Origin: Schmidtea nova
Taxonomy: Eukaryota
Assembly (NCBI GenBank): GCA_044892505.1
Contig: CM097882.1
Location: 204,042,001 to 204,106,000, forward strand
Length of the DNA: 64,000 nt
Reading direction: 5' to 3'
The notes under the pieces are model-generated. The model worked only from the letters and a program-made list of their open reading frames with translations. It made no database searches and was not told where the DNA came from. Positions 11,700 through 58,819 of the stretch are shown piece after piece. The position numbers and the translations under genes are program-made. Position 1 is the first letter of the stretch, and each line of letters starts with the position of its first letter.

Positions 11700-14549
11700 T
11701 GTTCTGTCACTATGACAAATACATGAAAAGTTATTATACTATTGAGATAATCACACATATTATTCTTAAATTATAGTACAAATATATCAAAAATATATGA
11801 AATATACATTACATACTTGAAATATTATCACAAAGTATCATTACATACATGAAATAACATTATACTATTGTGCAAATTACATACAAAATATCATCATACT
11901 GCAATTACATCGAAAATCACCAAAATTATACACAAAATATGAAAAGTACATAGAAATTCGTCACATATAAAAACATTACATATATGAACTATTATCAAAA
12001 ATACATACAAAATACATATAAATTTATCACACACGTACAAAATATCACCATACTATAGTGAATAAATATACATACAAAATGTCTGAAATACAAACATACA
12101 TAAAATATCATCTTACTATAGTTTGATAACATAGAAATACATGAAATATCCTCAAAATACAGAAACTTTCACAGATATATCGATTCATCATACAAAATAT
12201 CATATATATATAAGAAATATCTTTACAGATTATCACATGCATGAAATATTATTATAGTGCAAATTACATAGAAAATAGCAAAGATACATGAAATATCATC
12301 ACAAAATACACATAAAATTATAGGAAATTTTCACACATTAGAAATTATAATAATATTATCACGCCAGTACAAAATTATACAGAATATTATCACATTGAAC
12401 AAAAGCTTATCATATATATGAAATATTATTATACTTTTATGTAAACTACAAAGAAAAATACAAACATATACACAAAATATTATCACATTATAGTGTCTAA
12501 ACATTGCAAATACTCACAAAATATGTGAAATATGACCATAAAATATCAAAGAATCACAAAGAAAATATATAAAAGATTATCATATTTTTGTTTGATAACA
12601 TAAAAATACATTGAAATACATAAAAAATTATTAAAATGCATACAAGTATCATTACATACATGAAATATCATTACACAAAATGTTATAACGCATGAAATAT
12701 TACCATACAAAATATCAAAAGTACATAGAAATAAATCCTATACACAAAGGATATCATTACATATATGAAATATCATCATACTTTAATACAAATACAGATA
12801 AAATATTATCATGCTATATTAAAATAGAAATATCATACATACATACATACATATGAAAAGTGGTCATGTTATAGTCAGTCAAATGCATGAATTATTATCA
12901 TACTAGTGTAAAAATACATATATAATATCAAAAAATGTATCATACATACAAAGGATATCATCACAAAGTATCAATACATACATTAAATATCATCACACTA
13001 TAGTACAATTAAATAGATAATCATCAAAATATACAGAAATTAATCAAATTCACAACAATAATCATTAAAGAAATATCTACTTACTTGTGCAATTACATAA
13101 TAAATATACAGAAATACAAAAATTATATGAAATATCATCACAAATATCAACACATATGAAATATTATCATACATACACAAAGAATATAATAACATATTTA
13201 GAAAATTATCACATACAAAATATCAAAAGTCCATTACACATACAAAATATAATTTAACAGTAATAAATGTTTAACTAATGAGCTTTTGCACATAAAAACC
13301 ATCACAGAATAGGTTCTGCTACTAGGGTTCTGTTCGCAATGTTCTGCTAGCAATGTTCTGCTACTGAATAAATTTGATGAAAATGTAACAATGTATTATG
13401 AATGGAAATAAATCTTTCAATCATTACAGTAAATTCTACTTTAAAATGAGGTTGAATGCATGAAATGTCATTATTCTATAGTGCAAATACATGAAATCCT
13501 CTTTAGATACATGACTTTAGATGCATCAAATATTATCTTACTATAGTTTGATAACATAGAAAAAATAAATAGAAATCATCAAAATTATACAAAATATTAA
13601 AATAAAATTATTAAATAAAATATCATCATAAAGTACATAGAAAATCATCACAAATACACAGAAATTCATCAAATTCACAACAATAATCATTAAAGAAATA
13701 TCTACGTACTAGTGTCATTACATAAAAAATATCTGAAAATTTAAGATATATCATCACAAATATCAACACACATGAAATATTATCATATACAAAGGATATA
13801 ATCACATACAAAGGTTCATTACACATACAAAATATAATATATCAACATACCTTAATGTAACAGTAATAATTGTTCAAGTAATGAGCTGTTGCACATAAAA
13901 ACCATCACAAAAGATGTTCTGATACTAGGGTTCTGCTACTAAATGTTCTGCTAGTCATGTACTGCTACTGTATAAAATTAATGAAAGTTATATGAATGGA
14001 AATAAAACTTTCATCATACTAAAGTGCAAATACATTAAAATATTCACAAAATGATATTAGATGCATCAAATATTATCTTACTATAGTTTGATAACATATT
14101 AAAAATAGATCATTTGAAATGTCATCACAAAATACATAGATATTCATGTACAAAATATCACAAAATATCACAAATACAATAGAAATACATATCAAATATA
14201 TATGAAATGTCATCACAAAGTATCATTAAATATATGAAATGTCATCACAAAGTATCATTAAATATATGAAATATCATAATTCTACAGCGTAATTACAAGA
14301 AAATCTCCACAAAATATCACAAATACAATAAAATTCATCAAAAATACATAGCAATTCATCAAACAACAAATATTCACATAATAATTCTCATTAAAAGTGT
14401 ATCAGTAAATGTAATATTCTTTCACAATTTTTCTGTTACATTGATCGAAGCTCATATGCTAATGATTGTTATTTTAGTATATGTGTGAATAATAATAAGC
14501 TTTTGCACATAAAAACCATCACAAAAGATGTTCTGTTACTAAAGGTTCT
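11700..14549 (+). repeat. G-poor, A/C/T-rich degenerate repeat tract with a ~600-bp internal duplication; mirrored at 15083-17930
   Basis: Recurrent aaatatcatcaca/catacaaaatat words; 12990-13400 resembles 13590-14000. Confidence 0.7.
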
Positions 14550-17500
14550 TTGTAATAGATATATACCAACTTTTATTACGTTGTGGTACTTTATAAATAT
14601 TTTACGTTGTGGTATTTTAAATTGTAAAATTTTATTTAGAACATGAATTTTGATAACCCGCATTGTTTTTTACAAGAAATTAAAACTATGATGTACAGTT
14701 TGATATTATTTTAATTTATTTATTTGCGCGTATTTCCAATAATAATTATTTTGTCACAAACTATATATTTCCAATCATTATTTTGTCACAAACTATATAT
14801 TTCCAATAACTATTTCATCATTTTATGATATTAATTTCATGCTAGCAGAACATTTCGAACAGAACCTTTAGAATCAGAACCTATTCTGTGATGGTTTTTA
14901 TCTGCCAAAGCTTATTACTCGAACATTTATTACAATTCATTCAGCATCATTTGTTCTAATATTTTCACCAATTAATATTTTCTCTATCGGTTTTCTTCAT
15001 TTTAATGTAGAATTTACTCTAACAATTTATTGTCACTCGTATAATTTTCATTAAATTTATCCACTAGCAAAACATTTCGGATAGAACCTTTAGTAACAGA
15101 ACATCTTTTGTGATGGTTTTTATGTGCAAAAGCTTATTATTATTCACACATATACTAAAATAACAATCATTAGCATATGAGCTTCGATCAATGTAACAGA
15201 AAAATTGTGAAAGAATATTACATTTACTGATACACTTTTAATGAGAATTATTATGTGAATATTTGTTGTTTGATGAATTGCTATGTATTTTTGATGAATT
15301 TTATTGTATTTGTGATATTTTGTGGAGATTTTCTTGTAATTACGCTGTAGAATTATGATATTTCATATATTTAATGATACTTTGTGATGACATTTCATAT
15401 ATTTAATGATACTTTGTGATGACATTTCATATATATTTGATATGTATTTCTATTGTATTTGTGATATTTTGTGATATTTTGTACATGAATATCTATGTAT
15501 TTTGTGATGACATTTCAAATGATCTATTTTTAATATGTTATCAAACTATAGTAAGATAATATTTGATGCATCTAATATCATTTTGTGAATATTTTAATGT
15601 ATTTGCACTATAGTATGATGATAGTTTTATTTCCATTCATATAACTTTCATTAATTTTATACAGTAGCAGAACATGACTAGCAGAACATTTAGTAGCAGA
15701 ACCCTAGTATCAGAACATCTTTTGTGATGGTTTTTATGTGCAACAGCTCATTACTTGAACAATTATTACTGTTACATTAAGGTATGTTGATATATTATAT
15801 TTTGTATGTGTAATGAACCTTTGTATGTGATTATATCCTTTGTATATGATAATATTTCATGTGTGTTGATATTTGTGATGATATATCTTAAATTTTCAGA
15901 TATTTTTTTTGTAATGACACTAGTACGTAGATATTTCTTTAATGATTATTGTTGTGAATTTGATGAATTTCTGTGTATTTTTGATGATTTTCTATGTACT
16001 TTATGATGATATTTTATTTAATAATTTTATTTTAATATTTTGTATAATTTTGATGATTTCTATTTATTTTTTCTATGTTATCAAACTATAGTAAGATAAT
16101 ATTTGATGCATCTAAAGTCATGTATCTAAAGAGTATTTCATGTATTTGCACTATAGAATAATGACATTTCATGCATTCAATCTCATTTTAAAGTAGAATT
16201 TACTGTAATGATTGAAAGATTTATTTCCATTCATAATACATTGTTACATTTTCATCAAATTTATTCAGTAGAAGAACATTGCTAGCAGAACATTGCGAAC
16301 AGAACCCTAGTAGCAGAACCTATTCTGTGATGGTTTTTATGTGCAAAAGCTCATTAGTTAAACATTTATTACTGTTAAATTATATTTTGTATGTGTAATG
16401 GACTTTTGATATTGTGTATGTGATAATTTTCTAAATATGTTATTATATTCTTTGTGTATGTATGATAATATTTCATGTGTTGATATTTGTGATGATATTT
16501 CATATAATTTTGGTATTTCTGTATATTTATTATGTAATTGCACAAGTAAGTAGATATTTCTTTAATGATTATTGTTGTGAATTTGATTAATTTCTGTATA
16601 TTTTGATGATTATCTATTTAATTGTACTATAGTGTGATGATATTTAATGTATGTATTGATACTTTGTGATGATATCCTTTGTATGTATGATACATTTTTT
16701 GATATTATATATGTATTTTTACACTAGTATGATAATAATTCATGCATTTGACTGACTATAACATGACCACTTTTCATATGTATGTATGTATGTATGATAT
16801 TTCTATTTTAATATAGCATGATAATATTTTGTCTGTATTTGTATTAAAGTATGATGATATTTCATATATGTAATGATATCCTTTGTGTATAGGATTTATT
16901 TCTATGTACTTTTGATATTTTGTATGGTAATATTTCATGCGTTATAACATTTTGTGTAATGATATTTCATGTATGTAATGATACTTGTATGCATTTTAAT
17001 AATTTTTTATGTATTTCAATGTATTTTTATGTTATCAAACAAAAATATGATAATCTTTTATATATTTTCTTTGTGATTCTTTGATATTTTATGGTCATAT
17101 TTCACATATTTTGTGAGTATTTGCAATGTTTTGACACTATAATGTGATAATATTTTGTGTATATGTTTGTATTTTTCTTTGTAGTTTACATAAAAGTATA
17201 ATAATATTTCATATATATGATAAGCTTTTGTTCAATGTGATAATATTCTGTATAATTTTGTACTGGCGTGATAATATTATTATAATTTCTAATGTGTGAA
17301 AATTTCCTATAATTTTATGTGTATTTTGTGATGATATTTCATGTATCTTTGCTATTTTCTATGTAATTTGCACTATAATAATATTTCATGCATGTGATAA
17401 TCTGTAAAGATATTTCTTATATATATATGATATTTTGTATGATGAATCGATATATCTGTGAAAGTTTCTGTATTTTGAGGATATTTCATGTATTTCTATG

Positions 17501-18294
17501 TTATCAAACTATAGTAAGATGATATTTTATGTATGTTTGTATTTCAGACATTTTGTATGTATATTTATTCACTATAGTATGGTGATATTTTGTACGTGTG
17601 TGATAAATTTATATGTATTTTGTATGTATTTTTGATAATAGTTCATATATGTAATGTTTTTATATGTGACGAATTTCTATGTACTTTTCATATTTTGTGT
17701 ATAATTTTGGTGATTTTCGATGTAATTGCAGTATGATGATATTTTGTATGTAATTTGCACAATAGTATAATGTTATTTCATGTATGTAATGATACTTTGT
17801 GATAATATTTCAAGTATGTAATGTATATTTCATATATTTTTGATATATTTGTACTATAATTTAAGAATAATATGTGTGATTATCTCAATAGTATAATAAC
17901 TTTTCATGTATTTGTCATAGTGACAGAACATTTAGTAGCAGAACATTGCGAGCAGAACCCTAGTAGCAGAACCTATTCTGTGATGGTTTTTTTGTGCAAA
18001 AGCTCATTACTTGAACATATTTCTAATAATAAATATACTGTTACCTAATTTTCAATGTCACTTATCATCATTTCAATGTAACAGTTTAGCAAAACTTTCA
18101 ATCATTGGTTGGTCAATAAAATGTTTGGTTATTAAATTGGTTGATTTTTGCAATATAAATACAACTTGTAAATAGTATTGATTGATGAAAATGAATAAAG
18201 AAACAAATAAAGAAACAAATAAAGTTAGTTTTAAAAATATATATATATATTTAAATTAATTATTTTAAACTAGGTTACAGATAATTTCATTACT

Positions 18295-18789
18295 TTGGAC
18301 AATTGGACCCAGTCCTTTTTAATACTTGATGACCTTTTAACATCGATTGAGAAATGCGATATCGACATTCTTTCAAAATTATTCAAATCCTTCAATAATA
18401 AATTAATAATTGGTTTAACAGAATCATTCGGATATGATAAATCCATGATGAAATTATCCAGTTTTATTATGATTCTTAATGATATCGATTCTACTGAATT
18501 CAATTTGAATACCATTTTCTGGTCATGTATGGAATTTCGACTTGGAAAATATCGTACTATTATTCGAACTTTCATGCTGAATGTGGATATTTTAGAGGTA
18601 AATGTAACCAAGAAATTGGAAGAAATCAAACAAAGATTTCTCACATGTTCAATATGTAATATCAATAGAGTTGGCATTTTATATTTACCTTGTGGACATG
18701 TCATTATTTGTTCAAAATGTTTAAAAAATATTGATAAGTGTGAGTCTTGTGGTATTAATATTGATGAATATCATGTGATATACATATAA
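18295..18789 (+). CDS. IAP-type RING finger protein; right-arm copy, identical translation
   Basis: Same 164-aa translation as 10843-11337. Confidence 0.75.
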   Translation: MDNWTQSFLILDDLLTSIEKCDIDILSKLFKSFNNKLIIGLTESFGYDKSMMKLSSFIMILNDIDSTEFNLNTIFWSCMEFRLGKYRTIIRTFMLNVDILEVNVTKKLEEIKQRFLTCSICNINRVGILYLPCGHVIICSKCLKNIDKCESCGINIDEYHVIYI

Positions 18790-18879
18790 TGTCGTACAAA
18801 AATATATGTATTTTCATTTAATTTATTTTTATCATTGGCTAAGAGAATGCATTTGTGATTAATAATTAGTCTTTTTTGA

Positions 18880-19053
18880 CATCTTGTCTTTGTTAACTTG
18901 GCTTGCAACTGCAATGTCTTTGTTAACTTGCATCTGTTTTGCAATGTCTTTGTTAATATTGCACATGAATTGCAGCGTCAAAATGGGTAGGAAAATTAAA
19001 ATATATTACGTTGTGGTAGTTTAATTATTTTATTTTGACATCTTGAAGGTTTG

Positions 19054-19096
<43 letters not shown>

Positions 19097-20640
19097 CTCA
19101 AATATCTTTCGCATGCTATTTATATAGTTTTAAAAAATTTTGAACCCTTGAATATTTTTGAATATTTTTGAATATATTTTATTAACTTGCATGTATGTCT
19201 TTGTTAACTTGTATCCACATTGCAATGTCTTTGTTAACTTGCATCTGTATTGCAATGTCTTTGTTTAGTTTGCATACGTGTTGCAATGTCTTTGTTTAGT
19301 TTGCACATGGATTGCAGTGTCAAAATGGGATTATTATTATTATTATTAATAAATTGCGTGTGTGTCTTTGTTAACCAGTATCTGTATTGCAATATCTTTG
19401 TTAAGATGTTTTGGCATTACAATGTCTTTGTTTAAAAAATTTTGAATCCNNNNNNNNNNNNNNNNNNNNNNNNNNNNNNNNNNNNNNNNNNNNNNNNNNN
19501 NNNNNNNNNNNNNNNNNNNNNNNNNNNNNNNNNNNNNNNNNNNNNNNNNNNNNNNNNNNNNNNNNNNNNNNNNNNNNNNNNNNNNNNNNNNNNNNNNNNN
19601 NNNNNNNNNNNNNNNNNNNNNNNNNNNNNNNNNNNNNNNNNNNNNNNNNNNNNNNNNNNNNNNNNNNNNNNNNNNNNNNNNNNNNNNNNATGTCTTTGTT
19701 AACTTGCATCTGTTTTGCAATGTCTTTGTTAACTTGCATCTGTATTGCAATGTCTTTGTTAATATTGCATATGTATTGCAATGTCTTTGTTAACTTGCAT
19801 ATGTATTGTTTTGGCATTNNNNNNNNNNNNNNNNNNNNNNNNNNNNNNNNNNNNNNNNNNNNNNNNNNNNNNNNNNNNNNNNNNNNNNNNNNNNNNNNNN
19901 NNNNNNNNNNNNNNNNNNNNNNNNNNNNNNNNNNNNNNNNNNNNNNNNNNNNNNNNNNNNNNNNNNNNNNNNNNNNNNNNNNNNNNNNNNNNNNNNNNNN
20001 NNNNNNNNNNNNNNNNNNNNNNNNNNNNNNNNNNNNNNNNNNNNNNNNNNNNNNNNNNNNNNNNNNNNNNNNTTACAATGTCTTTGTTAACTTGCATATG
20101 TATTGCAATGTCTTTGTTTAGTTATTTTGGCATTGAAATGTCTTTGTTAAGATGTTTTTGGTATTGAAATGTCTTTGTTTAGATGTTTTGGCAATGATAT
20201 GTCTTTGTTATGAAAAGATTCTATGTTTAGGAGTACATATATAATCTTTGAATTGTAATAAATGTTCGAGTAATAAACTTTGGCAGATAAAAACCATCAC
20301 AAAAGATGTTCTGATAGTAAATGTTCTGCTAGTAAATGTTCGTGTCTCTGTTTAGTTAATTTGGCATTGAAATGTCTTTGTTATGAAATTTGGCAATGAA
20401 ATGTCTTTGTTTAGTTTTTTGGCATTGAAATGTCTTTGTTATGAAATTTGGCAATGAAATGTCTTTGTTTAGTTTTTTGGCATTGAAATGTCTTTGTTAT
20501 GAAATTTGGTAATGAAATGTCTTTGTTATGAAATTTGTCAATGAAATGTCTTTGTTTTGTTTTTTGACATATAAATGTCTTTGTTATGAAATTTGGCAAT
20601 GAAATGTCTTTGTTTAGTTTTTTGGCATTGAAATGTCTTT
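18880..20640 (-). repeat. Mirror AACAAAGACAT array, two N-gaps
   Basis: atgtctttgtt cores; Ns at 19450-19689 and 19819-20072. Confidence 0.9.
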
Positions 20641-20789
20641 TTTTAATATTGCACATGGTTTTGCAATGTTTCTTGATGACTCTATTTGTGTTAAAAAATT
20701 TGTATTAAAAAAATTTGTGTTAAAAAAATTTGTGTTAAAAAAAATTTAAAAAAAAAAAATATTTGAACACATAACCACATGAATATGAC

Positions 20790-21011
20790 CACCATACTCA
20801 ACTTTCAATTACCTTTTGTTTGATACATATATTAAATAGTTCTGAACCTTGGACCCTTCAAGGGTCGACCACCCACCTTCAATAGTATGTCCATTAAACT
20901 CATTTATCAATTACCTTTTGTTTGATACATATATTACATAGTTTTAAAAATTTTGAACCTTGGACCCTTCGAGGGTTGACCATCATACTCAACTCTCAAT
21001 TACCTTTTGTT

Positions 21012-21066
<55 letters not shown>

Positions 21067-21531
21067 GGTTTGAAAAGATTTGAAGGTTTTTGACCCCTTG
21101 AAGGTTTAGCACCCACCATAGACCTTCGATGGTATGACCATTGTGTGCACATCTCAATTACCCTTTGTTTGATATATAACTTGTAATGTTTAAAATTTTT
21201 TGAAGGTTGAGCACCCCTTGAAGGTTTAGCACCCACCATAGACCTTCGAGGGTATGACCATTGTGTGCACATCTCAGTTACCTTTTGTTTGATATATTAC
21301 ACACAAGGTTTAAAAAACGTTGAATGTTTTGGACCCTTTGAAGGTTAAGCATCCACCATAGACCTTCGAGGGTATGACCATTGTGTGCACATCTCAGTTA
21401 CCTTTTGTTTGATATATTACACACAAGATTTAAAAAACGTTGAAGGTTTTGCACCCTTTGAAGGTTGAGCACCCACCATAGACCTTCGAGGGTATGACCA
21501 GCATAACTACCTCTCAAATACCTTTTGAATG

Positions 21532-21564
<33 letters not shown>

Positions 21565-22145
21565 GGTTTAAAAAAGGTTGAAGGTTTTGCACCCTTTGAA
21601 GGTTGAGCACCCAACATAGACCTTCAAATGTATGAACAACATACCTACCTCTTAAATACCTTTCGAATGATATATATATTATTAGGTTTAAAAAAGGTTG
21701 AAGGTTTTGCACCCTTTGAAGGTTGAGCACCCACCATAAACCTTCAAATGTATGAACTACATACCTACCTCTCAAATACCTTTCGAATAATATATATTAT
21801 TAGGTTTAAAAAAGGTTGAAGGTTTTGGACCCTTTGAAGGTTAAGCACCCACCATAGACCTTCGAGGGTATGACCAGCATACCTACCTCTCAAATACCTT
21901 TCGAATGATATATATATTATAAGGTTTAAAAAAGGTTGAAGGTTTTGCACCCTTTGAAGGTTGAGCACCCACCATAGACCTTCAAATGTATGAACAACAT
22001 ACCTACCTCTTAAATACCTTTCGAATGATATATATATTATAAGGTTTAAAAAAGGTTGAAGGTTTTGCACCCTTTGAAGGTTGAGCACCCACCATAAACC
22101 TTCAAATGTATGAACAACATACCTACCTCTCAAATACCTTTCGAA

Positions 22146-22226
<81 letters not shown>

Positions 22227-22630
22227 GGTTTGAAAAAGGTTGAAGGTTTTGCACCCTTTGAAGGTTGAGCACCCACCATAGACCTTCGAGGGTATGACCA
22301 GCATACCTACCTCTCAAATACCTTTCGAATGATATATATATTATAAGGATTAAAAAAAGTTGAAGGTTTTGGACCCTTTGAAGGTTAAGCACCCACCATA
22401 GACCTTCGAGGGTATGACCAGCATACCTACCTCTCAAATACCTTTCGAATGATATATATATATTATAAGGTTTAAAAAAGGTTGAAGGTTTTGCACCCTT
22501 TGAAGGTTGAAGGTTTTGCACCCTTTGAAGGTTAAAGACCCTCCATAAACCTTCGAAGGTATGACCATTGTATAGACCTCTCCAAGACCTTTCGAATGAT
22601 ACCCTTGTTTGAAGGTTTGACCTTATTTAA
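20790..22630 (-). repeat. Mirror copy of the ~120-bp minisatellite
   Basis: Reverse-complement units; variant order differs from the left arm. Confidence 0.95.
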
Positions 22631-25600
22631 CCTTTGGAAATTCAAATTTAAAATTTAAATTTGAAATGAGTCATCGATGACGTCATAAAATTCAAATTTG
22701 AAATGAGTCATCGATGAGTCATAAAAATGATGAGTCATCGATGAGTCATAATTTTTTCTACCCCCCTCCCCTCGGGGGAGGGGAGGGGGGTGTCTTTGTT
22801 CTTTTTTTCCGCCCACGCAATGAGTCATAATGTCTTTGTTCCCGGCTCCACACATCTACCTACTGTGGTATATTAAAATTTGTTAGTCGGGAAACATTAG
22901 AAGAAATATTGGCAAAATGTTCTGCAAAAAGCGGTTTTAGTATAAAAGGCATAGTATCATCTGAAGCCATATAAGGGTTTATACAGAGTCGCGGTTACAC
23001 CATGCCGAAAAGCGAAACAACAGTAATAAAATACGTAATGAAGTTTTACGAAGACAAGAAAGCCGAAATGAAAGTTGCGTTATCGCTCCAAATTAAATCT
23101 GGAAACAGGTTTAGTATAACTGTAGACGAATGGAGTGACATTAACATGAGAAGGTATATAAATGTTACACTCCACTCATCAGTTAGAGCATATGTTCTTG
23201 GACTTGTTCCTATTATAGGGTCTTGTGATTCTGACGCCACTATTTCGTTAGTTACACAAAAACTCAAAGAATTCGGTATCAATTTAGATTCTGATATTGT
23301 AGCTTCAACTAATGACGGAGCTGCAGTAATGGTGAAATATGGCAGGAATATTGCAGCTGCATGTCAGTTATGCATAAACCATGGAATTCATCTTGGTGTC
23401 ATTGATGTATTTTATAAGAAAAATATGAATATAATAGAGGTGGAGACAAATGATGAAGATGAAGACGCAGAATATGAAGATGATGATGATGGTATAGATT
23501 ATAATGACATAGCTGACAATAACAAATTTGATGTAGATGGAAATTTAAATTTTGAAGTAGAAAATCTAAATGAATTGCCGCAAATACGTGCAGACATTGG
23601 AATAGTTCTTGGTGAGACAAGAAAAATTATAAAGTTTTTCAAAAGATCATGTGTTCGAAGCTGTATTCTTCAAAAACATGTTTTAGAACAGGAAGGTACA
23701 AAATTACGACTACTTCTTGATTGCAGAACTCGATGGAATTCTATTATTCCTATGGTAAATCGTTTCTTAAAATTAATTAATTGCATTAACTTCGCTTTAG
23801 AAGAGCTAGGAAAAGAAAAGTTTCGAGAGGAAAACATTATTATTTTGAAGGGGATATCTGAAGTTTTACAGCCTGTAGAGCTAGCTGTTAATGAGTTGAG
23901 CAAAGAAGACAGCAATTTACTTAAAGCAGAAGGAGTTTGTATATTTCTTTTGAACAAGCTACAAGATGCAAATAAAGATATTGCCACTGAATTAAAAATT
24001 GCTTTGAAAAGGCGATTTGATGAAAGAAGGCAAAAGGATTTAATATCATTAATGTTATTTTTACAAACTGGTACCTATCCACAATCTAATGAACATTTTT
24101 CATATTCATCAAAAAATATAATAAAATCATCGGCTAAAGAATATTTTAAACGATTATTTAATTGTGGCCATGAAGGCGAAAATAGTCAGGAAGAAGATGA
24201 TGATTCAGATTCGCAATCGGATATGACTATGGAACATTCTGCGTATGATGAACTGCAAAAACAATTATGAGTGTTATGAAGGTTCCCAAAGTTAGTTACT
24301 CAAAATTATTATTATTGGAGCGAGAGCTAAAACTATTTAATTGTGATCAATGTAAACGAGGCGAGCATATGGAAAAATTATACCAAGCATTGCTTACAAT
24401 CCCACCAACTTCAACTGCCAGTGAGCGGGTGTTTTCAGTAGCATCAAATTTTATTACAAAACTACGTTCTCAAATGAAAACGAATACTTTAAATGGTCTT
24501 GTATTCCTTAAATACTATTTTTATCTAATAAATAAAACCATTAAATTATATCCGAAATTTTGAATTACATTTTTCATATTTAGTTATTTTTTATATTTCT
24601 TTTCATTAAATACAATATATTTCAGAACTAACCAAATAAAACCATTTAATTAAATACAAATTTTTGAGTTTTGTTTTTTCATTCATTTTTACCCGAAAAC
24701 CCGAGTTACTCGGGTTGTGTAAGTATAAATTACTCGAATACTCGAGTAATCTAAAATCCGAGTAATCTGGATTCTCTACTATGAAAGAATTCGCAAAGTC
24801 GATCGAAAAATGAAAAGTATAAAAACGTGTAAATGACCACTCAAAGAGCAGTAAAAATGTTATATTGAATAATGCTTACAGATTATACTCTATAATAGTT
24901 CGTTGAATTTTACTCTAAATCGTGAACATCATTGATAAAAATTTCTAAGAATTGCATATAGAATTTTGAATATTAAAGATTGCAAAAGAGCCGGCTTGAA
25001 ATTTTATATATGCCTTATTTTTAGAAACCCATATATGGAAATTAATATATGTAAAAATTTATAAATTATTTTTGAAGATAATTTAATTTTTTAGATTGTA
25101 TTATTTAGATTGCGAAATTTGCGAATAAAAATTTTATTATTGTATAATTTTTATAGAATTTTCAGATTTGGTTATAAAAATAAAATTTACTTATTGATAC
25201 TATATTATGTCGAAATTATAATATAAAAATTATAAATCAAAAATTATATTGGAATATATAAAAATTACAAATCAAAAATTTTATTACTATATTGGAATGC
25301 AAAAACTATAAATTATAAATTTTATTATAATATAAATTTATAAAATTCTAAATTTGAAATTTGGTAGGAAAATTATCAAATACTATTGTTATTATTTTAA
25401 TTCTATAATTATTTTATATATAAATATATATATTATTTTATAAATACCCCCTCACGATATCACAAAGATAGTTTCCAAACAATACATCCATACCATTCAA
25501 AAACACCATCATACATAATACCATATAAAATTTAGTTAACTGCCAACACACATACCACATCATTTCAGTCATTAACATTCACTAGCATCACACATACAGA

Positions 25601-26933: not shown

Positions 26934-27356
26934 TTATAACAAAAAGATTATTTTTTTAAATTTACCTAATAAGATTTTTCTTACTTGTTTTCTTGGTGTT
27001 GTACCCACGAGACTACGACCATACTTCTGTCGGGTTGAGCAACTTATTCCAAACTCATCCAGAAAAATGACATTATCATCATTTAGTTCCAATGTAATCG
27101 ATACATCTTCGTCTATTTTAGAAAGTATAAATACCTTTGCATCTTCGGTTATAATGCTTTCAACTGGCATTCTTGTTGCAATTCTCGCGATTCTACCTGT
27201 GTTCTTGAAGACTCCGATAATTGAAGCTACCGTTTTCGAGTTTAACTCAAGTTCTGCGGCTATTTGTCCAGGATTTTTATTATCCACATACTTTCGGATT
27301 ATTAAGGCACGCTCATTGTCTGTAATTCTACGTGATTGAGTTTCTCTTGCTGGCAT
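26934..27356 (-). pseudogene. IS630/Tc1-like transposase fragment with internal deletion
   Basis: N-terminal HTH (ERALIIRKYVDNKNPGQIAAELELNSKTVASII) joined to VIFLDEFGISCSTRQKYGRS (first catalytic D). Confidence 0.7.
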
Positions 27357-28047
27357 AATTATTATAGAAATAAAATATTAAAAGGATTAAATTGGATTTA
27401 AAAAAGATTAAATTTCATTTAAAAGAGATTAAATTGCATTAGAAACTTGTATTGGATTTACACATAAAAATTTTATTGTAGAGATCCTAATTGATTATTT
27501 TCATTTATTCGATTAAATAATCTAAATCTTTAGAAATTTTGATTTTTTTACAATGGTTGCCGTTGCCAAGGCCTTGGTGATAATTTAAGATTTTAATGTA
27601 AAATTTTGATAAAAATTAAATATAAGTCGTAAAGCAAGATAGACAATACGATTAGGGTATAAATAAAATTTTACTTGAATTTTGAATATTATAAACATAA
27701 TAATTTAGAAATTTACGAAAATAATAACCGTTTAGATAAAAATAATGACTATTGTATATCCCGGATATATGTCTTTTAAAGGAATATTTGATCCCCGAAT
27801 TGAGATTGTGATAATATATTTGACTATGATCTTGTGAATGAGATAGATGCGCGGATTGCTTGTGTTCTTGGATAGAGTAATGTATAATGATTGATGGAAA
27901 TAATCGATTTTATTGCACTTCAGATGTTGATCGGAAAAATCAAGACTTTGGTGACAGTAGGGTACGAAAACATCTTGAAAAACCCAAAGAACTTTAATAC
28001 TCTTTGTATGAATGATTCTATTGATTTTATTCCATCTATTATTGTGT

Positions 28048-32489: not shown

Positions 32490-35400
32490 TTGTTGGGCAA
32501 AAACTGCAAATTGTTTTAATAAAGCAGTAACCCCATAAGTAGAGAGCGCGCAAGATTCAATTTTAACCCAATCACCCATTAGAAACTGAAGCGATTAAGT
32601 GAAAAACGTCAAAAGGTGAAGTGGACTCAAGCACATCAATCAGTAGAGAGCGCGCTAGCTGTGAATTTGCAAGTCCTTACACTGAAACCTCGAGAAAAAA
32701 TTAAAAGTCGTCAAGAGAAGAACGTTTGAAAGTTAGAATAGGCGGAAAACCCATTGAAAATATCCATAAAAAACGGAATTGTGTTATAAAACCTCAGTGC
32801 AGAAAAAGTTTAACAAAATTTTAGCCGAAAATTGTGATTTTATCACAAAATTTCACGTTTAACAATAAAAAGAACTAATATTGATCGAAATATCGTAAAT
32901 TAAATCAAATCGAACAAATTTCAATTCAAAAATAAAAATTTTGAAATAAAATAAATTATTTGTGTTTTATAAAAAATTATTACACAAAAATATGGATTTA
33001 ATTTTCGGAAAATCATTAGAATTAATTTAGAAAAATTAAAAAGAAAATTCTAGAACAAATTGTTTTACTACACTAGTGAAGGTGACGCAAAATCGATGGT
33101 ATATATACCACTATCAAAATGGCAATAATCAGAATTTGAAAGAATTTGTGAGAATTGGTGAAAATTCTTTTCGTAATTCAAAATTTTGCAGAATTTGAAA
33201 GAAGTTGAAAGAATTTGAATTTAAATTTTTAAAGAATTTGTGGAAAATTTGTAACCAGAGAAATATTACTTGATCCTGAAATATTATCCCTCATCGTGGA
33301 ACATTAATGTAAGGAGTTATTTTTATTTTTTTTGGGGATGAGATCATCAGTCGTCATGCCCGTTGATCATCTCATGCCCAGTATTTTGTTTATCTTTATA
33401 TTTATTTATTTATTATTGATTTAGTTTATTTATATGAAATATCAATTTTTTAGATTGAATTAATTATTCCATTGAATTATTACTTATTGAAATTTATATG
33501 AAAATGTTAATTTTATATGTTTTTATCAAGATACTGTCACAAATACCCATATTAGATTAATATTTATTTCAAATTATTGGCTGTAGAAAGATAAGAATAA
33601 CTAATTTATTTTCTTTTTTGTGCTTCCATACCCCCTGAAACCTGTTTCTGGCCTTGCGCCGAGCGGGTGGAAGTAGTCTGAGCGGATCGCTGGTTCGATT
33701 CGTAATCGATCAGCCCATATTTCCGAGTCCAGGTGAATAGCCCAAACATCCATGTTCACCTCATCCCAACTGGGGAACAGTGGCTTGGCCAAGGGCAAGT
33801 TGTTATACTAATGATATTTGATTTATAATAATGTAGTTTATCCGAATTTATAATTCTGACATATTCATAATAAAAAATTAATACTACATATAAAGGTAAA
33901 GATGATTTCCTCCAGTAATGTCTTTTCCATTATGAAAAATAATTTGTGCAAGAATATTTTACTCGTCGTTCGCCTTCACTCTCACAACAACTGTCATCTT
34001 ATCCGAAAATGCAAGGAAAATGAAAGCTAATATTGAAAAGAGAATCGTTTGAAATAATGCTCAAAGCTGGTATAATGATCACGAAATGAAACGAATTATG
34101 AAGACAAGTATTGACTGATCTGAATTAAACCTCATTCATTATCTAAATAATTTTCTCTAGTGAACCTTGTTTTTGGGAGCCTGAAGTTCCTAAGTGAAGT
34201 GTCTCGAAAAATTCGCGCGCACTTTGGTTAGGAAATTCATGCTCGAACGAAACCGAAGTTCACTTTACTTGATGTTAAAAAATATTCTTTGAAGAATTTA
34301 TAATTTATTTTACTCTCAATTTTATTTAGTATACAAAGATTTTTAGATTGAATTCTTATTTGGATTTCGAAAATTGTGGATAAAAAATTTATTATTGTGT
34401 CGATTTCGTTTTTGATCATAAAAAATAAAAATTTACTTTTTATTATATTGCAAAAAATTTTATAATGAAAAATTGTAAACCAAAAAAAATTTTTTTTCTA
34501 AGAATTTATAAATCAAAACTTATATTGAAACCCATAAAAATTATAAATCGAAAATATTATTATTATATTAAAAATTTTATCATTTTGTAAAATCCAAAAT
34601 TCCGAAATTTCATAGAAAAAAATTTTACTATTAATATATATATACTTAAAATATAAAAATTCGAACCTAAAGATATATATTGTAAAAATCAGAAATTTTA
34701 TTATTGTCTAAATCTTAAGAATTTATAAATTTAAAATTTGTATAAAATTATTACTATTATTTTAATTTGGAAAATATTTTATATATATTATATATTATTT
34801 TTATTGAAACCCCCACGATATCTCAAAATCATAATGCATCCCTATTTGCAAAAACTTACATCCATTTCATTCAAAAGTAACACCCATACTTAATACAATA
34901 CAAAATACATTCAGTTACCAATACACACACTACCACATTTCAATCAATAGGATCTTCTATATTAAACAATACAATAAACAATACATCCACTCAACAACAT
35001 ACACAACGCGATTTCGGCCAACAACCTTCACTAGCGTCATACATCCAGACAATCCCCACAAGTATTCATATAACCCCATCCATTGTTTATAGCCAATTAC
35101 CGCAGTATCATTCCCAACATACAAACACACGCAATCCCATAAAATCATAACAATAGGGCATTTATTTCAAACGTACTATAAAACATATATACACACATCT
35201 CCGAACTTCTCTAAATCACCAAACCAAAAAACGCACAACATCATCCATACCCAAATAATGCATACAAGCTGTATTCATCTTTTTACCATCCAAACTTTAT
35301 AATCTCATTCCTTAACATTACATTTCTCCTCAGACATTGTAGCTCATCCACCAAATCCCATCGGAAAAATAATACTTTTAAACTTAAGAATTGTAGAAAA

Positions 35401-36370
35401 TAAAAATTAAAGACCAAAAGATTTTTTTATCATTATAAATATACAAAATCCAAACTCAAAAGAAAAGGAAATCAGTCCAAATTTATTATTACCCAACTGT
35501 CTACAATAATGAAATATCCTAAAACGATTTAGGGTTGTTTTGAGTTGATTGGATATTCTCGGTTTGATGGAAAGATTGTACTCCAGAATGAGTGATCGTC
35601 TCCAAATAAGAAACCAAAAGGGACGCTGGATGTGGACAATGAATAATTCCAACGATTTGGAGAATAATTGTAAAAGAGACGATTTTTGATTTTTTATTTC
35701 CAAGCGAGAATTTGATGTTTGGTGAAGATTTTCGTTTAAAGTGGGAAATCCAAGGAGATTTTAATAGAATTAAGTGTTTTGAGTTCCTCGAGGCGATCCC
35801 GATATGCATCCTGAATAATTAAAATATGAAATTAAACTGTTTAGAATTAATTAAAAGATTACCAAAAGGAAAATCATTATGAAGGGAAAAAACAAAATTT
35901 CTAAAATTAAATTCACCAAATCAATAAATTGCTATAGCAATTAACCAATAATAGTGGTTTAATTTTTTAATACGTTTATATAGTTTATTTTAAGAATTAA
36001 AATTTATCGTTTTGAGGGTTAAGGGAGCGGGAAAAGACCAAATTTTGTAGTTTAAAATTAATTACCCTATCTCCTCGCTTTTATCTATAGTAAGATTTTA
36101 AGGTTTTAAAACCCAAGTTTTCCTTTTTAGCAATAGCTGTAACCGTTGCCGTTGTCAAGGCCGCGGCAAGAATTCAAAAGCTATGATGTTAAATTTTTAA
36201 TTAAAAATTAAAATCCAAAATATAAAGCAAGATAGACATTAGGTATAGGGGATAAAGAGAGTTGAATTAAATTTATTAACGTAAAAATATACAAATTTTA
36301 AAAGTCTCGAAAATAATAAAGTTTAGTTAAAATCAATAGAAAACAAACACCTCGAATATATGTGTTGATA
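32490..36370. repeat. ~3.9-kb tandem unit A of the modular repeat
   Basis: 32490-35200 aligns by eye with 36378-39200 (period ~3.9 kb). Confidence 0.85.
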
Positions 36371-39300
36371 AAAGATTTGTTGGGCAAAAACTACAAATTG
36401 TTTTAATAAAGCGATAACCCCATAGGTAGAGAACGCGCAAGATTCCATTTTAACCCAAGCATCCATTAAAAATCCAAACGATTAAGTGGAAAACACCAAA
36501 AGGTGAAGTGGACTCTAAACACATCAACCAGTAGAGAACGCGCTAGCTGTGAGTCTGAAAGTCCTTACATTGAAACCTCGAGAAAAATTAAAAATCGACA
36601 AAGGAAGAACGTTTGAAAGTTAGAATTGGCGGAAAACCCATTGAAAATATCCATAAAAAACGAAATTGTGTTATAAAACCTTCAGTGCAGGAAAAATTAA
36701 CAAAACTTTAGCCGAAAACTGTGATTTTATCAAAATATTTCACATTAACAACAAAAAGAACTAATATTGATCGAAATATCGTAAATTAAATCAAATCGAA
36801 CAAATTTCGATTCAAAAATAAAAATTTAGAATTAAAATAAATCATTTGTGGTTTATAAAAAATTATTACACAAAAATATGGATTTAATTTTCGGAAAATC
36901 ATTAGAATTAAATTAGAAAAATTAAAAGGAAAATTCTAGAACAATTTGTTTTATTACACTAGTGAAGGTGATGAAAATCGATGGTATATATACCGCCATA
37001 AAAATAGAATTTATCAGAATTTGTGGAAAAAAATTTTTTTAGTTGAGAATTTGTGGAGAATTTAATAGAAAATTTGCATTTGTTACAAAGGTTGCAAAAT
37101 TTAGTAGAGAATTCACACTCGAGCTTGAAAGAGAAATTCGTCAACTCCGAATATTTGATTTTACCGAAAGAAGGAGAACTATCCAGGAGAGCCACAGCTA
37201 ACAGAATCTATTAAAACTACCTCGAAGAATCCAGAAAACTTAATTTCGTTTTCAAAGAGCCCATTAGGAAGTCGTTCTGAGCGTAAGGATTTCATCCTTT
37301 TATTTTTATTTTTATGTTATTATTCTTTTTATTACATACGCGTTATCGGTAAGGGAGGTCCAAAAAGTCATGCCCTTTGGACACCCCATGCCGACATCGC
37401 TCTTATTTAATTTATTAAGTTATTTATATTTTTATTTTTATTATTTTGTATATTGATAATGAAAATATTATAGTTATATGATTTTATCTCCTAAATTTTT
37501 GTTTATCATTAACATTGTCACAGGTTCTCATAATTTTAAATTTCAGTATGCTAAATGAAAGTTACCAAATAAATATTCTAAAATAAAAGTTATCAAATAA
37601 ATAATTTTTTTTTCTTCCGTACCCCCTGAAGCCTGTTTCTGGCCTTGTGCCGAGCGGGTGGAAGTAGCCTGAGCGGATCGCTGGTTCGATTCGTTAATCG
37701 ATCAGCCCATATTTCCGAGTCCAGGTGAATAGCCTAAACATCCATGTTCACTTCATCCCAACTGGGGAACAGTGGCTTGGCCAAGGGCAAGTTGTTATAC
37801 TAATGATATTTGATTTATAATAAATGTAGTTTATCCGAATTTATAATTTCTGACATATTTATCTTTTAAAAATTAATACCACATGTAAACTTAAAGACGA
37901 ATCTCTCCAGCAATGTCTTTTCCATTATGAAAAATAATTGTGCAAGAACATTTTACTCGTCGTCGCCTTCACTCTCGCAACAACTGTCATCTTATCCGAA
38001 ACGCAAGTAAATGGAAGCTAATGTTGGAAAAGAATCATATGAAATAATGCTCAAAACTGATATAATGATCACGAAATGAAATGAATTTAGGACAAGTATT
38101 GACTGATCTGAATTAAACCTCATTCATTATATAAATAATTTTTCTCCAGTGAACCTTGTTTTCGGGAGCCTGAAGTTCCTAAGTGAAGTGTCCCGAAAAA
38201 TTCGCGCGTACTTTGGTTGGGAAATTCTTGCTCGAACGAAACCGAAATTCACTTTACTTGATGTCGAAAAATATTCGTTGAAAAATTTATAACTTATTTT
38301 ATTTTTATTTTTATTCAGTATATAAAACTTTTAGGTTGAATGCTTATTTGGATTTCTAAATTTATGGATAAGAATTTATTATCATGATTTGGATTTCGTT
38401 TTTGATCATAAAAAATTAAAAATTTACTTGTTATTATATTGAAAAAATTTTTTATAATGAAAAATTGTAAACCAAAAATTTTCCTAATATTGTTATTCTA
38501 TAAAAGATTTTATCATTTCATAAAATTCCAGAGAATTTGTAAATTAAAAATTATATCGAAACTCATAAAAATTTTAAATCGAAAATATTATTATTATATT
38601 GAAAATTTTATCATTTTATAAAATTCAAAAATTTCGAAATTTCATAGAAAAATTTTACTATTAATATATATATACTTAAAATATAAAAATTCGAATCTAA
38701 AAATGTATATTATAAAGATTAGAAATTTTATTATTATATTACTTTCATAAAATTATAAATTTAAAATTTGTAAAAAGTATTATAAAAATTATTATTATTA
38801 TTTTAATTTAAAAAGTATTATTATTATTTTAATTCTAAAAATATTTTATATAACTTATATATAGTATATTATAACTACCCCCACGATATCTCAAAATCAT
38901 AACGCATCCCTAATTGCAAAAAATTACATCCATTTCATTCAATAACATCTTCCATACTAATACACAAGCAACATACATATAAAATACAATATACACACAT
39001 ACACAGTAGCATTTATTAGCATTCAACAATTATATACACACAAGCAAACCATACCGAAAAATCTACACAGTTATGTTAGTTAGCATCATACATCCAGTCA
39101 AACCTACAAGCATTCATATAATCACATCCATTCACTGAACCATTTTTTACCTAACATACAATCACAAATAGTTATGACAATAGAAAATATATCCTTAATA
39201 GTATACAAACACACAAACTTGAAAATCAACAATCTACCTCCTATGCCGAAATGTCATTACAAAATCCGGCATACTATAGTCAAATGTTTTACAAAAATTA

Positions 39301-39919
39301 TCATCCATATAAATTCAAATTTAAACTAGTAGTTTTCCCCTCATCAACTTCCTACGGAAAAATTCCCGGTCAATCCATATTCCTAAGAGCTATACCAGAT
39401 CCATTTTTAAGCATACCGGAATGTTTCGAACTAACAATACCAGCACACATTTCTCTTGTCAGTTGTACTATCATACGCACCATTAAATAAAAGTTCTTAC
39501 AAGTTCACTATCATAAAAAGAAGTTAAAAATACCATAACAAAAAGAAAAACATTTTTATTTATATCATTAAAAAAAAGGGATAAATTAATCTGATTCGAA
39601 AGTTTCCTAAATAATAGTTGGATTCTTCATCAAGGCATCCAGAATTTCGTTGTAGCGAGAATTTTCTTGTAACCCTTGCTGTTCCAAATTTCGATTCATT
39701 TTCTTCAAAACTTCTAAATTTAAAAAAATCAGATTAATGATAATTCTTAAATAATTATAAATGCTAACTTTGCGATAGAATTGGCATTTGTGCTTCGTAT
39801 GGGAAGAAATTTGAGTTTCTTTTGAATTATTCTCGGGAAAAGAGTCCGTGCCTGTTCCCACATTCCCCGACGATGCCAGCCTGTTGTATATCTAAACGTT
39901 AAATTGTTTTTTAATAGTA

Positions 39920-40068
39920 TAATTCATATTATCTAATTCATATTATCTAATTCATATTATCTACTTCATATTATCTAATTCATATTATCTAATTCATATT
40001 ATCTAATAATTCATATTATCTAATTCATATTATCTAATAATTCATATTATCTAATTCATATTATCTAA
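39920..40068 (+). repeat. 14-bp tandem repeat TAATTCATATTATC, ~10 copies
   Basis: Direct reading. Confidence 0.95.
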
Positions 40069-40414
40069 CTTATCCTGATGATTTTTTGGAATTTTGTTTT
40101 TCCTTGAAGATGAATATTAGTGATTTAAAACAAGGGAAATTTATTTTGGTTTAATTTATAAATAAAATTTTCGTGTATACGAATGAAAATTAAGGTCTTA
40201 GAATTTCAAATATAAATTGAAAATTTATTGTAAAGAATTTTTATTTTATTATTTATCATTAGTTTCGATATTCGAAAATTTAAGGGTACATTAGTGTTTT
40301 GACGCTCAGAATGATGTATTTGTATACAATAATAAATTTATAGTTATGTAAAATATTTATGTTGAATTTCCGGTTAAATTTTTATTGAAAGCTTGTAGGT
40401 AAATCGTCGAAGAA

Positions 40415-40648
40415 GGGACAAAATGGGCATGAAACCTTCTATCGGTAGCCCTTGGACCCAGGAGATATTCGGTCAATCATAGTTTCGTATTGACGACGCT
40501 CACTGATTGCGAATACCCACCCACTTGTTACAGTACCAACGTTACATAGTGACGGGTAACAAGATGGTAATTTCAATGTTTTATGTGTTGAGTTGTTGAT
40601 GAGAGCCATAGCAACGTCAAGGTCATATTGACGGTCAACAACTTACCA
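40415..40648. repeat. 230-bp end cassette, copy 2
   Basis: Near-identical to copy 1. Confidence 0.9.
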
Positions 40649-40849
40649 GATTCTTCGATTCCCGAATTGAGTTTGCGATGCTATGTTTGAGCATGAGCTT
40701 GTGGATAAAATGAATGCGCGGAAACTCCTTTTTTTTGAGATAATACCGAGCATAATAATTGATTGGGACAAATTAATAAATTTTAATTGATAAAAATACT
40801 TCATTTTTGTTAATTTAAAATATATATCTGCAGTTAAATCATGTGAGAA

Positions 40850-41084
40850 GGGACGAAAATGGGCATTAAACCTTCTATCGGTAGCCCTTGGACCCAGGAG
40901 ATATTCGGTCAATCATAGTTTCGTATTGACGACGCTCACTGATTGCGAATATTCACCCATTTGTTGCATTACCAACGTTACATTGTGACGGGCAACAAGA
41001 TGGTAATTTCAATGTTTTATGTGTTGAGTTGTTGATGAGAGCCATAGCAACGTCAAGGTCATATTGACGGTCAACAACCCACCA
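40850..41084. repeat. 230-bp end cassette, copy 3
   Basis: Near-identical; ~200 bp after copy 2. Confidence 0.9.
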
Positions 41085-43850
41085 TTTTACTTTTATTTTT
41101 ATTTAGTATTTACGATTTATTTTACTTTTATTTTTATTTAGTATATAGAAATTTTAGATTGAATTCTTATTTGGATTGCAAAATTTGTGGATAAAAATTT
41201 ATTATTATGTAGATTTTGTTTTGATCATAAAAATAAAAATTTACTTTTTATTATACTACGAAAAATTTAACATGAAAAAATTGTAATCCAAAAATTTTCC
41301 TAGGAGTTTGTAAATCAAAAACTATATTGGAACACATGAAAATTATAAATCGAAAATATTGTTATTATATCAAAAATTTTATCATTTTATAAAATTCCAA
41401 ATTCGAAATTTCATAGAAAAATTTACAATTAATATGTATATCCTTAAACTATAAAAATTAGAATCCAAAAACTTATATTACAAAAATTTGAAATTTTATT
41501 GTTAAATAACATTTATAAAATTATTTTAAAATCTAGTAAAAAGAATTGTAAAATTACTATTATTATTTTAATTCTAAAAATATTTTATGTATAAATATAT
41601 ATTGTTTTATAAAATACCCCAGCCCCACGATATCACCAGTCATATTACATCCATATTTGCAAAATAATACATCCATTCCATTCAATAACACCATCCATAC
41701 TAATACCAGGTGCAACATTTACTTAAATACAACACACACACTACCACATTTCAATCAATAGGATCTTCTATGCTAAATAATACAATAAACAATACATCCA
41801 CTCACCAATATACACAACGCAATTTCAGCTAACAGTATCCACTAGCATCGTACATCCAGAATATCCCCACAAATATTCATACAATCACATCCATTGTTTA
41901 TCGCCTATTACAGTAGTATCATTCCCAACATACCAGCACACGCAATCACATAAAATCATAACAATAGGGCATTCATTTCAAACGTACTATAGTATATACA
42001 TACACACACCTCTGAACTTATTTCAATTTACCTCACTAAACCACAACACGCCCCACATCCATACAAATTCGATTATAATTCCCTTCGACAAAAATTGGCT
42101 TTGATATGTACCCATTAGTAACCCAGCTAACCCAACAAAGACCCCTAGGATAATAATTGACCCCTAAAAGCTCTTAAATAAACTCCGAAACCAGAATTAC
42201 CTCTCCCAAAATCGACCATAAACGTTACCTAGTATTCGAAGCATAGTTCAAACTACTCAGTAATCATAATATACAACAATCAGTAGGAAAACAAAAATTA
42301 TTAGTCAAAGGAGCACATATGAGTATAACATATTTTGTTGTAATAAATTTTATCAAAAACAAAAATTCGGCAAATTGAACTTTAATTAGTCCCAAATAAA
42401 CCCCCGGATAATCTGCAAACCAAGAACTCACATTGTAAGTCAACGGCATATGAAATCTATGTCCCATTCATTTGTTAACCTGCTAACGATTTGTATCCAT
42501 ACCTAATAGCAATCTTTATTAGATTAGAAATATGTTTTTGTGTTGCACCGTTGAAAGACGACACAACCGATTCATAATAAAATCATAGATTAGTACTAAT
42601 AATGATAACAATAAAATAAAAGACATTAAAAAAACTTTATTTTCAACAAATTATATACAATTTCAAAACAAAAATTATAGGAATCTGTGTTAAGTTAATC
42701 CAAATCGAAGTTAGGACAAATAGATAAAAATAATTAGGTAACAAACCCTGTTACAGCAAGGGTAGATTTAAATCCAAAGCGAAAAGTTTCATGAAAAATC
42801 TCCAAATGAAATCCAGCAATTGTGGTAAAACGTCATAATAAGTTAAGCTTAAAGATCAAAATTATGTCATTAAATAAAATGAATTAATATTGAAATTACT
42901 TTAGTTCGGAAAACATTAAACAATTTTTTCCCTTCTTTTATCTTCTGATATGTAGGAGCAGTGATTTATATTAACGTTCGCTACCGTCCTGTGGAGAAGT
43001 GATTCTCCACCTCAGGAGATTTGAGCCACTAAAAGGGGAAAACTGTAATTATAAACATAAAAATTTGGATATGACTTACCAGCTTGAAAATAATAATTGA
43101 TGGAAATCTTCTTCCTAAAAATAACTATCTAAAATCAATAGTTATAATATAGAATTTAAATTGTTATAATAGAAATTACCCAATAGAAATCAAGGAATTT
43201 TGCTTACCCGTCTATATAGAATTTCTTTCGATCGGGGGAACATGGATATCCTTGACGGGAAGAGGTAGGAATTTTATTCTATAGGTGAGATAAAATTAAG
43301 GATGTTAAATGTTGACAAAAACCTGTAAAAAACCTTAAAATTTTTTTTAATATTAAGTTAGTAACAAATTATGTAATAACTTGTTGCCGTTGTCAAGACC
43401 TCGGCAAATTTTCGAAAATTAAATAAAATTAAAGTTTAGCAAAATTATAGCTATATTATTTTCGCAAGATAGACATTAGGTATAGGGGATAAGGGAAATT
43501 TTAGTTAAATTTACTGAGATAAAAATATATAAATTTAAAAGTCTCGAAAATAATAAAGTTTGGTTAAAATCGTCAAAAAATCAAATACCCTGAATATGTG
43601 TGATGATCAAGGATTTTTCGATCCTCGAATTGAGCTGGCGATGGTATACTTGAGGATAAGCTTGTAATTAATAGTGAATGTGTGGAAATTCCTGTGTTTT
43701 GAGATAATATTGTGTATAATAGTTGGTTGTGAAAAATCAATAAAGGTTCATCGATAAAATTATTTTATCTAACTAATTTAAAATGAATATTTGATATTAA
43801 ATTATAATGTTAGATGATGACTTAAATGCGTTTTGAATGTGTGATTTTAG

Positions 43851-46805: not shown

Positions 46806-47601
46806 AGTGTTATGCGCTGTTACGAAATTATTATTGGCATATAGGGAATAATACCCCGCCCCTACCACTTCATGAATGTTAACTGACTCACTCATGTACC
46901 GATAGTTACTCTTGATACCATATTGGTAATGCACACGGATGCGAAATCTAGTGAGTAGGTGAACTTTGTTGCCAAAACTACTCATCACGATTTTCTCACT
47001 TTCGGGTTCCTTCTGCCAACAGAAAGACTTACAGACATATTTATTTTTCGGTCAATTCACACGATTAATTCCAAGCTCTTAATCGCTTTATCCTATCTCG
47101 GATCTATGATTATTTGTTCCCCAAAACGTTTGAATAATCATCCTGCCCGTATCCACCAGACTGCTTAAACCTACTTTTGATGACCTCAAGTTTACCCATT
47201 TAATTATTATATTCTACGGCTTATACCTCGCATTCGCCTGGCGAATGGTAGGACCAAAGCTGCATGGGAAACCGGGCGAATTTACCCTACACGGTGTCAT
47301 AACCAATAATTAATTTAGGTTAGGGAAAATCACGTTGAACATAGAATGAGTACAAATTAATATCATATTTCAAATGTTTATTAAGCAAAATCATCTAAGT
47401 TACATATGTAAATAAATTAACATTAAAAAGTATAAACAACAATTTCACATTAAATTAAAAAAATAGAAAAATAAGTAAAATTTGATCTTTGTTTTAGTAT
47501 TCTAAATTTAAATAAACTTTTGTTAAATTTATATATTTTAATTTCAATTTTTTGTGAAAATTGTCACTTAATATTTATTTCAAATTAATTGTCATTTTCA
47601 G

Positions 47602-58805: not shown

Positions 58806-58819
58806 TATTTTCATTGCAT

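Follow-up and report, generated by a model that had tools for sequence, protein, structure and literature searches.

A stretch of 64,000 nucleotides of the Schmidtea nova genome (NCBI GenBank assembly GCA_044892505.1, contig CM097882.1, positions 204,042,001 to 204,106,000 of the forward strand; hereafter the window) harbours a non-autonomous Polinton-like element, one end of which has been duplicated and the arms of which are unusually long. The arms of about 7.9 kb each make up nearly the whole element, which is a one-sided duplication of one end with a single junction that lacks motif homology, and which is bounded by a 6-bp target site duplication (Table 1). As to its origin, we tentatively favour, at somewhat less than an even chance, that the interior and one inner end of an integrated Polinton-like element were lost via one-sided copying, that is, by repair from the opposite terminal repeat. 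A preliminary description of the window had proposed that end-initiated, protein-primed replication of a Polinton switched template at inverted copies of a dispersed motif and copied back over one end.

Table 1. Positions of the element, its parts and its insertion site in the window
Feature	Position	Strand	Remarks
Host hAT element split by the insertion	5846-24778	+	8-bp duplication CTATGAAA
Target site duplication GTGGTA, left copy	6616-6621	+	6 bp
Whole palindromic Polinton-like element	6622-22864		16,243 bp including four N runs; termini AGTAGGTAG... / ...CTACCTACT
Left arm	6622-14549	+	Putative copied arm; inner end within truncated motif copy
Substitutions between arms, by zone	6622-9454; 9694-12497; 12498-14022; 14023-14549		49/2833 bp; 2/2448; 12/1525; 0/527
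120-bp tandem arrays, outer arm	6884-8281		Mirror at about 21052-22510
29/30-bp tandem arrays	8708-10747		Broken by N runs 9455-9693 and 9823-10178
Outer motif copy	9186-9278	+	Orientation reversed relative to the inner copies in the same arm; mirror 20249-20341
RING-finger open frame	10843-11358	-	171 codons; C-terminal RING, Pfam zf-C3HC4_3, E 2e-9
Truncated mirror motif copy	14493-14549	-	100% identical to right copy, cut after second GTTCT
Single new junction	14549/14550	+	Spacer side without motif remnant
Spacer	14550-15082	+	533 bp; two parts
Spacer motif copy	14840-14933	+	Same orientation as 15064-15139; 89% identical to 9186-9278 copy
Complete motif copy	15064-15139	+	Spans 15083, where symmetry resumes
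Right arm	15083-22864	-	Colinear with spacer; putative template end
Three further right-arm motif copies	about 15663-15769, 16269-16372, 17921-18018	+	
Mirror RING frame	18274-18789	+	Translation identical to 10843-11358 frame
Target site duplication GTGGTA, right copy	22865-22870	+	6 bp

Boundaries and insertion site

The element interrupts a hAT element, the gene of which encodes a BED finger at 6408-6620 and a dimerisation domain in 24252-24563. In the empty-site sequence, the hAT frame is continuous across the insertion point; it contains one stop at codon 106 and is then open to codon 537. The target duplication and the continuous hAT frame thus indicate a clean insertion. Within the window, the terminal 262 bp of the element are present at its two ends only. 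A chromosomal fold-back inversion was ruled out, given that neither flank is duplicated and that the hAT frame reads through, and a read-level fold-back chimera was ruled out as the whole explanation because the symmetry ends exactly at the target duplication. The hAT element itself is young, with a single premature stop among its first 537 codons, and a frame with a CAP-Gly domain (4735-5115) lies just to its left.

Relationship to Polintons

Polintons (Mavericks) are recognised by a 6-bp target duplication together with characteristic end motifs, and their terminal inverted repeats were found to be 46-1447 bp (PMC8097293) or 100-1500 bp long (PMC10748475). The element shares with them a 6-bp duplication, here GTGGTA, AG...CT termini that deviate by one base from the end motif, and a length of 16.2 kb, which lies within 13-25 kb. 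Its ends, AGTAGG...CCTACT, match five of the six bases of (AGT)2 at each end, the known forms being (AGT)2//(ACT)2 or (AG)3//(CT)3. However, its arms are more than five times longer than the longest repeat in the published surveys, and each of them contains a RING exon that is probably spliced. Moreover, no pPolB, integrase or capsid module was found among the open reading frames of at least 100 amino acids, and 32 chosen shorter frames of the left arm and spacer had no Pfam match at the curated cut-off. Thus, it is only the ends that suggest a Polinton derivation, and the element is to be called Polinton-like rather than a proven member. No description of copy-back or palindromic Polintons was found in the literature searched, although an earlier one in the original Polinton paper, in a 2007 review cited for repeat expansion in Polintons or in repeat databases is possible; the available parts of three further articles contain nothing on palindromic Polintons (PMC3014272; PMC6431247; PMC3185507).

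A single junction in the centre of the palindrome

The mirror symmetry stops at 14549 and resumes at 15083, leaving 533 nt between the arms, and in this respect the coordinates of the preliminary description were right. Its statement that the symmetry breaks within a copy of a dispersed motif with the core GCAGAAC/TGTGATGG was also borne out; the motif is real, with 12 core matches in the window, 11 of them within the element and one outside at 54652. However, the idea that the symmetry broke at two pre-existing inverted copies of this motif was not confirmed. A complete copy stands at 15064-15139, and from there the resemblance to the higher-order repeat of the arm (70-76% identity) persists across 15083 and, within the spacer, as far as about 14997. 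Thus, 15083 is not a junction, and there is one junction only; the left motif copy is the truncated mirror of the complete right copy.

The right part of the spacer, 14798-15082, continues the repeat type of the right arm. Here lies the spacer motif copy, which had been announced as a further forward copy and was indeed found in the orientation of the right-arm copies; together with its flank it aligns to another arm unit from 14798 on. The left part, 14550-14797, is unique save for two copies of the 13-mer TTACGTTGTGGTA and a 32-bp tandem pair (14741-14804), and its longest exact match to the arms is 15 nt. The right arm and the spacer form one colinear 8.3-kb end, which the left arm mirrors down to 15083; this colinearity was judged from repeat continuity, not from a parent element.

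The spacer side of the junction was compared with the other motif copies. In six of the six other copies in the element, the 40 nt after the motif break point resemble the continuations of the other copies (shuffle p 0.002-0.004), whereas the 40 nt past 14549 hold no motif remnant (score 10 vs a shuffle mean of 14.0; p 1.0). No hidden homology was found at the junction either, the best short inverted matches across the spacer (e.g. 19 nt at 74%) probably being no better than DNA of 77% A+T would give by chance. Folding of 14450-15180 yielded the arm stem only and no stable loop structure, and a search of 6600-15200 against Rfam gave 0 matches. Homologous switching from one inverted motif copy to another should produce a hybrid motif and leave a remnant on the spacer side; as there is no such remnant, this route lacks support. 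Strictly speaking, such a template switch would have occurred between two pre-existing inverted copies flanking the spacer. The break does lie inside a motif copy, and each arm has copies in both orientations (9186-9278 vs the inner ones), so that an inverted parental copy is conceivable. However, in addition to the missing remnant, the left copy agrees with the right one in every one of its bases and is not a hybrid, and the spacer copy is not inverted relative to the template arm, all of which makes a strict motif switch highly improbable.

The two-part spacer could also be explained by a plain internal deletion of a parent with native 7.9-kb repeats. The spacer would then consist of two joined interior stubs, and the repeat boundary would be old. 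Indeed, 14550-14797 has no long match to the arms and could derive from the other end, and internal deletion is the usual source of non-autonomous DNA transposons (PMC3014272). However, no junction was identified inside the spacer, the native repeats would have to be more than five times longer than the published ones (PMC8097293; PMC10748475), and the end-duplication would only be shifted further back in time. We regard an internal deletion as decidedly unlikely.

Distribution of the motif

All five inner motif copies are oriented towards the RING exon; the left-arm mirrors of the three further right-arm copies have their cores at 13897, 13294 and 11639. A lone, shorter copy lies outside the element at 54639-54728, beside an N run (54729-54916), and has a 22-nt match to the arm at 13371-13392. 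Copies of the motif, or of a repeat related to it, thus also occur outside the element. With copy bounds that we set from repeat comparisons, the motif accounts for 7.3% of the non-N sequence of arm plus spacer (572 of 7821 bases) and for 12.9% of that of the inner part (479 of 3721). As a single junction, noticed after the fact, lies in a repeat-rich arm, its location in the motif is not a significant enrichment, and the break inside a motif copy is probably incidental.

Proposed repair from the opposite terminal repeat

The explanation that we favour starts with the breakage of an integrated copy somewhere in its interior. The left broken end would have paired with the opposite terminal repeat, and copying would have run inward beyond the limit of the native repeat, taking in the RING exon and the motif array. 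The copied strand would then have been released and joined to the other broken end via end-joining or short microhomology, giving a non-autonomous element with extended terminal repeats. Such an extension is supported by the single junction, the complete right motif copy, the colinearity of the spacer with the right arm and the clean insertion. Moreover, a later extension of the inner arm would leave the outer arms more diverged than the inner ones, as is observed.

A comparable route has been proposed for Galileo, in which copies with extended repeats were explained by repair from the opposite repeat with the product TIR1-F1-F1-TIR2, and the same article states that repeat expansion has been reported for Polintons (PMC3573991). 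Polinton repeats also drive local rearrangements in C. elegans (bioRxiv 10.1101/2024.01.15.575659). Like Galileo copies of the 2RT type, the element is non-autonomous and consists almost entirely of long, internally repetitive inverted arms, and inner sequence of one end has been recruited into both arms (PMC3573991). However, Galileo is a cut-and-paste transposon of the P superfamily that has 7-bp duplications and repeats of up to about 1.26 kb (PMC3573991), as opposed to 6 bp and 7.9 kb here. The element works like the extended-repeat copies of Galileo, but with its 6-bp instead of a 7-bp duplication it is not a member of that family.

The divergence between the arms is uneven, with 1.7% in the outer, 0.08% in the middle and 0.6% in the inner zone. 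The outer arms differ by 49 substitutions in 2833 bp and the inner arms by 14 in 4500 bp (Fisher p 3e-10), and the longest substitution-free run spans 2045 bp (p 5e-5). A tandem-unit filter dropped 13 of the 63 differences, both alleles of which recur in other tandem units; thereafter, 36 substitutions in 2833 bp of the outer zone stand against 12 in 2052 bp of the resolved inner zone (p 0.018), and there are none in the 527 bp beside the spacer. This unevenness leans towards a later extension of the arm, although part of it probably reflects assembly collapse.

Several observations speak against repair from the opposite repeat. After filtering, transversions are equally frequent in both zones (15/2833 outer vs 10/2052 inner; p 1.0), while transitions differ (21 outer vs 2 inner; p 0.001), a pattern that age alone would not account for. 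The divergence step falls at the first N run, and the middle of the arm is probably one collapsed sequence and hence not datable. Finally, the older arm zone would imply a native repeat of at least 2.7 kb, which is above the published 100-1500 bp (PMC10748475).

Assembly of the arms

The gaps also bear on the question of whether the palindrome is, as a whole or in part, an artefact of the assembly. In that case, the outer 2.8 kb of each end would be specific to the locus, the interior would have been threaded from collapsed contigs used twice, and the true locus may hold a different interior. The edges of the N runs 9455-9693 and 9823-10178 mirror exactly those of 19819-20072 and 19450-19689 (4/4), the lengths of the mirrored gaps being unequal (239/254 and 356/240), and the 129-bp island between the gaps is identical in both arms. 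In line with general assembly behaviour, the mirrored edges and the identical island suggest that collapsed repeat contigs were used in both arms. An artefact is also compatible with the 2045 bp without a substitution and with the transversion-rich differences of the inner arms (unfiltered, 2 transitions and 10 transversions vs 30 and 19 in the outer arms; p 0.009), an odd spectrum that could reflect consensus errors. The transversion-rich differences map to 12498-14022 vs 15610-17132.

However, the gap-free stretch 10179-19449 includes the junction as well as the intact motif copy. With paralogous repeats as the reference, the 12 substitutions at 12498-14022 fall in both arms, which indicates that this zone was assembled separately; as the small indels differ between the arms as well, the arms are not one string that was pasted twice. 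Moreover, the target duplication marks the precise limits of the palindrome, which would not be so with a read-level fold-back. An assembly artefact is unlikely to account for the element.

Possible copy-back on a free replicon

A free, protein-primed replicon could have acquired the same layout by a copy-back event that did not involve motif homology. A polymerase that had started at one end would have left its template at 14550, re-primed at 15083 on the strand it had just made and copied back, and the two-ended product would have been integrated by an integrase acting in trans; the motif may or may not be the rejoin site. The replication of Polintons has been modelled on the protein priming of adenoviruses and phages, mostly via sequence features (PMC8097293). 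Like the element, copy-back or snap-back defective viral genomes have one junction, a short unpaired loop and complementary ends that both stem from the same end (PMC13506859). However, they are known mainly from negative-strand RNA viruses (PMC13506859), whereas the element is an integrated DNA fossil with unevenly diverged arms that is known from its sequence alone.

The copy-back origin put forward in the preliminary description is possible. Its layout stood, with one end colinear with the spacer, the other arm copied and a single junction, whereas the switch at inverted motif copies found no support for want of a remnant. The single junction and a loop that is colinear with one arm match copy-back, but repair from the opposite terminal repeat yields the same product, so neither feature demonstrates it. 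In respiratory syncytial virus (RSV), the hotspots are the rejoin points rather than the break points (PMC13506859), and the rejoin point of the element lies inside the motif; however, no hotspot can be demonstrated from one junction, which has a 7-13% chance of lying in a motif copy. From the target duplication it follows that both ends were integrated together or were present at insertion, as copy-back would have it. Copy-back also predicts arms of the same age, which is at odds with the uneven divergence and its clean run of 2045 bp; should the interior be a consensus into which several copies were collapsed, the divergence no longer counts against copy-back. Taken together, copy-back on a free replicon seems somewhat unlikely, yet deserves serious consideration.

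Adenovirus genomes with two left ends form via inverted repeats, and palindromic derivatives of protein-primed linear plasmids are known as well. The two-left-end adenovirus genomes resemble the element in that end-spacer-end products arise from a protein-primed linear replicon. However, their route needs two pre-existing inverted repeats around the spacer, whereas the junction described here has no remnant of a second repeat.

RING frame and a candidate 3'-end signal

The RING frame, present once per arm, is the only recognisable coding stretch of the element. It starts at AG/GT, and because its likeness to protein P0029 begins at the same boundary, the frame is probably a spliced exon with a likely splice acceptor at its start; an exon upstream of it was not found. 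A full search returned 292 matches at E <=0.001, nine of them at <=1e-10, while a word-indexed search returned 0. The relatives form a small unnamed protein family, the best being 50% identical across the whole frame. The nine best relatives have no informative name or context, and the Atlas returned generic RING clusters only. Such generic relatives neither link the element to Polintons nor separate the two.

The 13-mer TTACGTTGTGGTA occurs twice in the spacer (14576 and 14602) and once per arm (10614 and 19006), where it sits about 217 nt behind the RING stop. It is a candidate 3'-end signal, and its copies at the left of the spacer look as if a lost gene had ended just left of 14550. This placement and the orientation of the five inner motif copies would fit the spacer and the right arm being one natural end.

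Neighbouring sequence

Degraded frames of a long terminal repeat (LTR) retrotransposon with zinc knuckle, reverse transcriptase and RNase H lie on the minus strand at 228-4054. To the right of the hAT element, a helix-turn-helix frame at 26934-27377 has a weak Pfam match only and presumably is a fragment of a Tc1/IS630-type transposase. Direct repeats of 0.65-1.4 kb with 75-91% identity occupy 32490-42059 (e.g. 33614-34929 and 37605-38999) and possibly represent an old tandem duplication or nested repeats. Further to the right are a GIY-YIG endonuclease frame (45949-46515), which we take to be Penelope-like, and exons of a pantothenate kinase (Fumble) gene within 47572-59634, one of which had no close relative with a name.

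Implications

One locus in a gapped assembly cannot separate copy-back from extension in the chromosome, and the value of the element is that of a testable lead. If the arm was extended in the chromosome, the element would be an extreme case, with 7.9 kb, of the terminal-repeat extension that is known from other long-repeat transposons. A more far-reaching interpretation, which we consider doubtful, is that the element is the germline fossil of a Polinton copy-back defective genome, formed when a free protein-primed replicon was re-primed at a motif acting in cis as a rejoin hotspot, and then integrated by a helper integrase, which perhaps also amplified it into a palindromic family. If this were true, genomes of the defective-interfering type as well as extrachromosomal replication would be shown for an animal Polinton. 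Moreover, if palindromic copies with a shared junction but separate target duplications formed a family, replication accidents on the free element and its mobilisation in trans would be directly documented in the genome.

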